386 nt of DNA, from the NCBI RefSeq assembly GCF_003334355.1, contig NZ_QOWP01000110.1. The stretch is one strand, 5' to 3'. The stretch's first letter is position 1; each line of letters starts with the position of its first letter. The position numbers were made by a program, and so were the translations under genes. The notes below the pieces were generated by a model. The model ran no database searches and was not told the DNA's origin. It was given only the letters and a program-made list of their open reading frames with translations. Shown one piece after another: positions 1 through 257 of this stretch. Origin of the DNA: Escherichia coli. Its GTDB lineage: Bacteria > Pseudomonadota > Gammaproteobacteria > Enterobacterales > Enterobacteriaceae.

Positions 1-35
1 ATGCTTCCATCGGAAACGATGATCTGGCAGCCTGA
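1..35 (+). CDS. 3' end (last 10 codons plus stop) of an IS3-family orfB transposase, IS629-like; partial, 5' end outside the window
   Basis: Frame with codons starting at position 3 reads A-S-I-G-N-D-D-L-A-A-stop (TGA 33-35); positions 1-2 complete a codon begun outside the window. The stop lies about 40 bp inside the element terminus, as expected for orfB of IS3-family elements. Only 10 codons are visible, so the call depends on the adjacent inverted repeat and on recollection of the IS629 transposase C-terminus. Confidence 0.45.
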   Translation, partial: ASIGNDDLAA

Positions 36-52
36 GTTCACAGATAAAACAC

Positions 53-77
53 TCTCCAGGAAACCCGGGGCGGTTCA
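53..77 (+). repeat. Terminal inverted repeat (right end) of the IS629-like element, about 25 bp; inner boundary approximate
   Basis: + strand 53-77 is tctccaggaaacccggggcggttca; its complement TGAACCGCCCCGGGTTTCCTGGAGA starts with the IS3-family TG dinucleotide and contains the CCCGGG palindrome at 64-69. The 25-bp length is from memory of IS629-type repeats; the other end is not in the window for comparison. Confidence 0.45.
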
Positions 78-216
78 CTTTTCGCCAGTCCTGTAATTCC
101 ATACTTAGATGTCCGTCTATATCAGATGGGCGTCTAAGTTACCAATTCTCGTCTGATGGCTACATACGGCGGTCAGTTTACGCTTACGTGTCAAGAGGGA
201 TTTCTCAGCCCCTCAC
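78..216. other. 139-bp spacer between the two IS ends; no recognisable gene or RNA; probably a remnant of the original insertion target
   Basis: Bounded by the IS629-like terminus (…GGTTCA, 77) and the IS2-like terminus (TGGATTT…, 217). No ORF with a credible start and ribosome-binding site lies wholly inside it. It contains the near-repeat AGATGTCCGTCTA / AGATGGGCGTCTA and a small hairpin at 195-214. Confidence 0.5.
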
Positions 217-257
217 TGGATTTCCCCCTATATTTCCAGACACCTGTTATCACTTAA
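217..257 (-). repeat. IS2-like right inverted repeat (IRR), 41 bp; the outer terminus is at position 217
   Basis: Terminal TGG at 217-219 gives …CCA-3' on the transposase-sense strand, the IS3-family CA-3' end. The repeat contains the orfB stop codon at 228-230. Two positions, 224 and 243, differ from the canonical IRR as recalled. Confidence 0.7.

Follow-up and report, generated by a model that had tools for sequence, protein, structure and literature searches.

Background

Insertion-sequence (IS) remnants that are nested or abut one another are commonplace in the genomic islands of Escherichia coli and Shigella, and chimeric open reading frames (ORFs) at IS ends are known to cause trouble in annotation. 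The three elements that are relevant here, IS2, IS1203/IS629 and an IS66-family element, are all well-known insertion sequences. By the ISfinder convention, a copy with more than 90% nucleotide identity to a reference is an isoform of that IS.

The right inverted repeat (IRR) of IS2 is defined as a 41-bp sequence, 5′TGGATT...TTAA3′ (PMC3299598). The IRR contains an outward-facing -35 element that is able to build hybrid promoters with neighboring DNA (PMC9330008; PMC3299598). Position 8 of the IRR lies within the 11-bp cleavage domain of the donor end, and A-element mutations there abolished minicircle formation (PMC3299598).

A chimeric ORF at an IS2 IRR is already annotated in E. coli PSS-12. 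This ORF, WP_119122697.1 (a 69-aa PGAP “hypothetical protein”), reads outward from the IRR, consists mostly of the C-terminal part of a host hypothetical gene that was truncated by IS2, and is long enough to be annotated. Here we describe a 33-aa ORF that is likewise chimeric at an IS2 IRR, but reads inward and contains no host coding sequence.

The stretch of E. coli DNA that we analyzed, hereafter the window, is 386 bases long and has five ORFs of at least 20 aa. The 33-aa ORF is one of these. It occurs on the + strand, where it begins with an ATG at position 156 and ends with a TAA at 255–257, exactly as the original prediction had placed it. We found that three insertion sequences are stacked in the window, which belongs to a decayed genomic island of E. 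coli, and that the ORF arises incidentally where their ends are joined. It is almost certainly a chance open frame that arose from stacked mobile elements, and not a gene.

Insertion-sequence ends in the window

Positions 1–77 (+ strand) are the right end of an IS1203/IS629-type element of the IS3 family, based on BLAST comparisons with annotated loci. The C-terminus of the IS1203 transposase (orfB) ends at a TGA at 33–35, and the 25-bp right inverted repeat occupies 53–77, with its GGTTCA tip at 77. Window positions 1–217 are 100% identical to positions 4001–4217 of the PSS-12 locus (L001), where the PGAP feature “IS3-like element IS1203 family transposase” ends at 4035, corresponding to window position 35. 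The IS1203 copy in PSS-12 is 1310 bp long and has matching 25-bp terminal repeats (TGAACCGCCCCGG...). In another locus, L003, the match to the window stops at base 77. The element length, the 25-bp repeats and the transposase C-terminus are thus those of IS1203/IS629.

The next segment (78–187, − strand) is the truncated left end of an IS66-family element resembling ISEc23 and ISEc47, which was cut by the IS1203 insertion. The first eight codons of tnpA remain (MELQDWRK, with its ATG on the reverse complement of 100–102), together with the tnpA leader. The left inverted repeat covers about 24 bp at 164–187 (GTAAGCGTAAACTGACCGCCGTAT), and its tip, GTAAGCG, is the reverse complement of 181–187. 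A repeat that starts with GTAAGCG and a tnpA gene directly inside the left end place the element in the IS66 family. The segment is 100% identical to positions 3501–3610 of three loci (L008–L010), where it lies directly upstream of, and extends into the first codons of, annotated tnpA-tnpB-tnpC genes. The tnpC genes of these intact relatives are annotated as ISEc47 or ISEc23 family.

All three intact copies are 2532 bp long, end exactly at the base that matches window position 187, and are flanked by perfect 8-bp target duplications (CGATGTTT, GAACAGGC and ACTGATAT). The same left end also occurs, with 100% identity, at thousands of places with unrelated flanks, and complete E. coli genomes have it at about 8000 places. 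The present copy keeps only 110 bp of the element, which are 100% identical to the left end of the intact copies. The rest was removed or separated by the insertion of IS1203 into tnpA codon 9. The right end of the present copy is absent, such that only the left target copy, GTGTCAAG, is visible, in contrast to the 8-bp duplications at the three intact copies.

The last segment (217–386, − strand) is the right end of an IS2 isoform, as determined by comparison with K-12 IS2A and by an alignment of six copies. Over these 170 bp the window is 96.5% identical to K-12 IS2A (positions 1331 to 1162, reversed). Full-length relatives are 1331 bp long and are 95.7–96.2% identical to IS2A without indels. 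The present IS2 is thus an isoform that is roughly 4% diverged from the K-12 element. The 41-bp IRR is found at 217–257 (TGGATTTCCCC...CACTTAA) and agrees with that of IS2A at 39 of 41 positions. The C-terminal 52 codons of OrfB (InsD) run from 386 down to a TAG that is the reverse complement of 228–230 and so lies inside the IRR, as expected for IS2; 51 of these 52 residues are identical to InsD1.

The alignment of the six IS2 copies, which have unrelated flanks, starts exactly at TGGATTT, i.e., at window position 217. We considered whether the element could begin further left, given two plasmid matches that start at 198 or 205. The multi-copy alignment showed that the additional bases in these matches are coincidental. 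Duplications of 5 bp flank three of the four related full-length copies that we checked (TCTCC, CTCTG and CATAT) as well as K-12 IS2A (ATTAC), while the fourth related copy (L002) shows none.

The present copy has a C at window position 224, which corresponds to IRR position 8 (TGGATTTcCCCC); K-12 IS2A and each of the five further copies in the comparison have a G there. Given the role of this position in the cleavage domain, this change might impair transposition of the present copy.

Island DNA between the IS66-family and IS2 ends

Between these two ends are 29 bp (188–216) that carry no annotation and come from an integrative island of the CP4 type. They are identical to positions 3001–3029 of an allele with neither the IS66-family nor the IS2 insertion (L004). 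The first eight bases, 188–195, are the target-site copy GTGTCAAG adjoining the left inverted repeat of the IS66-family element, and the last five (212–216, CTCAC) abut the IS2 IRR. A 379-bp stretch around the remnant occurs in 2510 of 5426 complete E. coli genomes, and none of the best 25 of the 2510 matching records has an annotated feature over this stretch. In this island, the remnant has a small hypothetical gene on one side and an AlpA-like HTH gene on the other.

In annotated, diverged alleles, the remnant is located between a gene of the Hha/YmoA family and a hypothetical gene, both on the minus strand. We also considered whether the remnant could be part of the Hha/YmoA-family gene. 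It is not: it lies about 95–120 bp upstream of that minus-strand gene and downstream of the hypothetical one, and is non-coding.

Annotation of this island DNA is inconsistent between strains. In ATCC 11775-type alleles, the stretch of about 1.1 kb has a 107-aa ORF starting with GTG (L004 2917–3240, + strand). In alleles that are 4–6% diverged, the annotated genes are on the opposite strand, namely a 58-aa gene of the Hha/YmoA family (L013 1382–1558, − strand) and an 88-aa hypothetical gene.

The 107-aa ORF raises the question of whether the remnant is a piece of a disrupted coding gene that is read in a different frame, since this ORF does run across the site in the uninterrupted allele. However, its site carries no PGAP annotation among the best 25 of the 2510 records, it has no NCBIfam match and its PHROG match is non-significant (E = 0.09). 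Moreover, the genes that flank its site in annotated alleles are on the opposite strand, and its frame differs from that of the 33-aa ORF. We therefore regard a disrupted 107-aa gene as very unlikely.

Composition of the 33-aa ORF

The 33-aa ORF (156–257, + strand) is a chimera of three unrelated pieces. The first (156–187; 32 nt or 10.7 codons, MATYGGQFTLT) lies in the IS66-family end, antisense to the tnpA leader, and its ATG is situated 30–32 nt from the tip of that element. The second (188–216; 9.7 codons) is the non-coding 29-bp remnant. The third (217–257; 13 codons) is the IS2 IRR, where the ORF is antisense to the last 10 codons of OrfB. The codon at 216–218 spans the junction of the remnant with IS2 and is followed by 12 more codons, which confirms the earlier count of 13 terminal codons within the IRR. 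The stop codon, TAA, consists of the last three nucleotides of the 41-bp IRR, at its inner edge.

The ORF had been described as starting in a spacer. This description needs correction: most of the supposed spacer is the left end of the IS66-family element, with 156–187 forming its terminal part, and only 188–216 is not IS sequence. Therefore, ORFs that start in this region should not be annotated as host genes or pseudogenes.

The same ATG is present in other copies of this IS66-family end, and the frame that follows it can be compared between insertion contexts. In the intact copies, it encodes 27 aa (L008), 17 aa (L009) and 21 aa (L010). In PSS-12 (L001) it encodes 30 aa and in the present window 33 aa. 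The five frames have only MATYGGQFTLT in common. Since the length changes with every insertion context (17, 21, 27, 30 and 33 aa), the tail of the ORF is set only by the flanking DNA.

The length of the ORF is within chance expectation. Among 5000 dinucleotide-preserving shuffles of the window, 79.8% have an ATG-initiated ORF of at least 33 aa (mean 1.4 per shuffle), and the proportion rises to 96.9% if any start codon is accepted. By simple arithmetic, a frame in random sequence stays open for the 22 codons beyond the IS66-family tip with a probability of about (61/64)^22 = 0.35.

Expression signals and conservation

There is no Shine-Dalgarno sequence upstream of the ATG. The best duplex with the anti-Shine-Dalgarno sequence in the region from -20 to -3 has an energy of -0.1 kcal/mol, which is weaker than at 79% of all window positions. 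A promoter scan of the window detected no sigma-70-like promoter on either strand. Both results agree with the original prediction, which had noted the lack of a recognizable Shine-Dalgarno sequence and of a convincing promoter. The missing Shine-Dalgarno sequence does not strictly exclude translation.

The IS2 IRR is a potential source of a promoter, given its outward -35 element. A hybrid promoter built in this way would face along the minus strand, away from the 33-aa ORF.

A perfect TTGACA occurs within the 29-bp remnant on the minus strand (194 to 189), and is directed at the IS66-family end. In uninterrupted alleles, it is directed at the Hha/YmoA-family gene. No acceptable -10 element is found 16–18 nt after this TTGACA in the window or in L004, and the promoter scan is also silent there.

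The sole terminator-like hit in the window is on the minus strand (68 to 56), with a 5-bp stem and a T-rich tail. It lies inside the right inverted repeat of IS1203 (CCGGG/CCTGG), and most likely arises from the repeat sequence itself.

No match to the 33-aa peptide was found in NCBIfam or PHROG, and the exact product is absent from the 153 billion called genes of a large assembly collection. Neither the window nor the uninterrupted allele had a relevant match in an Rfam scan. The full window including the IS2 junction is absent from the 5426 complete E. coli genomes and from PLSDB plasmids. The exact IS2 junction is likewise absent from GTDB species representatives and, even with G or C allowed at position 224, from JGI metagenomes. 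The junction of the IS66-family end with the remnant is shared with only one genome, that of PSS-12.

The arrangement is thus unique and unconserved, and therefore cannot have been shaped by selection for the peptide. With a tail that depends on the flank, and with no match to a family or a product, the ORF does not exhibit the conservation expected of a small-protein gene.

One could nonetheless imagine that the collision of three insertion sequences gave rise to a genuine de novo micropeptide, confined to this strain and made in small amounts from transcripts that read through from the IS1203 transposase gene. A scan of the + strand from the transposase stop at 35 to the ATG at 156 revealed no terminator-like site, and weak read-through is conceivable as the most that would supply sense RNA over the ORF. 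In addition, because of an in-frame TAA at 135–137 the frame has no earlier start, and the ATG at 156 is the first start codon after that stop. On the other hand, any such read-through would supply no ribosome-binding site, and the ORF has neither a Shine-Dalgarno sequence nor a promoter of its own. The lack of conservation, with a junction that is missing from every collection searched, also argues against a micropeptide, as do the facts that no gene caller called the product and that its length is what chance predicts. Overall, a micropeptide is extremely unlikely, and we infer that no protein is made from the 33-aa ORF. If expressed, the peptide would be a minor case of an ORF born de novo where insertion sequences are joined.

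Uninterrupted alleles and a proposed history of the locus

The PSS-12 genome shows what the locus looks like without IS2 at this site. It is identical to the window over positions 1–217, continues with 349 more bases of island DNA, and then has an IS2 isoform with the TCTCC duplication. The frame from the ATG reads MATYGGQFTLTCQEGFLSPSLTGSVSGQKH in PSS-12, and its stop codon comes 31 nt past the position of the IS2 junction in the window. In L004, there is no ORF of at least 20 aa in that frame, and the region is unannotated.

According to the original prediction, the ORF could be the 5′ stub of a gene that was disrupted by IS2. In this case, 156–216 would be the true N-terminus of a host gene and the IRR an accidental tail. 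The frame indeed crosses the IS2 junction, and its tail is unlike that of the allele without IS2 at the site. However, the ATG and the first 10.7 codons belong to the IS66-family element, and the target duplications of three intact copies fix the tip of this element at 187. The PSS-12 frame ends after 30 aa, and without both insertions there is no ORF of at least 20 aa in this frame; none of the uninterrupted alleles that we examined has an annotation there. These results leave the idea with a negligible probability. The stub is refuted because 156–216 does not continue into a longer gene in the related alleles where we looked for it, PSS-12 and L004; the uninterrupted alleles contain no homologous uninterrupted gene. 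A different part of the same prediction held up: the insertion of IS2 either created or truncated the ORF, and expression is unlikely. This view is supported by the chance length, the PSS-12 frame, the lack of signals, and the lack of a family or gene match.

The reading that we prefer, a chance frame across stacked mobile elements, suggests the following order of events. The IS66-family element would have inserted first, at GTGTCAAG in non-coding DNA of the CP4-type island. IS1203/IS629 would then have cut this copy in tnpA codon 9, and the remainder of the IS66-family element was presumably lost or moved; on the other side of IS1203, PSS-12 has a fragment of IS2 rather than IS66 sequence. 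The IS2 isoform now abuts island DNA 29 bp from the IS66-family tip. In the resulting arrangement, a frame runs from an antisense ATG in the IS66-family end through its terminal repeat and the 29-bp remnant into the IS2 IRR, where it meets the TAA.

IS2 could have arrived by an independent insertion at CTCAC, or the present junction could stem from a 349-bp adjacent deletion in a PSS-12-like ancestor. Between the IS2 end in the window and the PSS-12 copy there are 3 differences over 171 positions, while the adjacent 217 bases are identical. Judged from these sequences, the differences lean slightly toward an independent copy or gene conversion.

PSS-12 is the only complete E. coli genome that has window positions 1–217. 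Its locus (L001 900–6300) is a CP4-44-type island beside yoeF-tmaR-yeeA-sbmC that has been reduced to a chain of IS remnants. This chain consists of a TonB-receptor fragment, an IS3 fragment, a truncated IS2, IS1203, the IS66 stub, the IS2 isoform and a transposase fragment.

Other open frames at the junctions

A GTG within the IS2 IRR starts an outward ORF on the minus strand (253 to 191), which has 20 aa in the window. In PSS-12, the same GTG starts the 69-aa WP_119122697.1 (L001 4395–4604), in which the IRR is joined to the truncated host gene.

Frame 2 of the + strand is free of stop codons for 121 codons (23–386), extends through all four segments and runs off the window. At its 3′ end, it is antisense to IS2 InsD. 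The counterpart of this frame in L002 (ORF 4158..4448) closes about 178 nt into IS2. The openness of frame 2 is probably due to chance, together with the scarcity of stop codons that is usual in a frame antisense to coding DNA.
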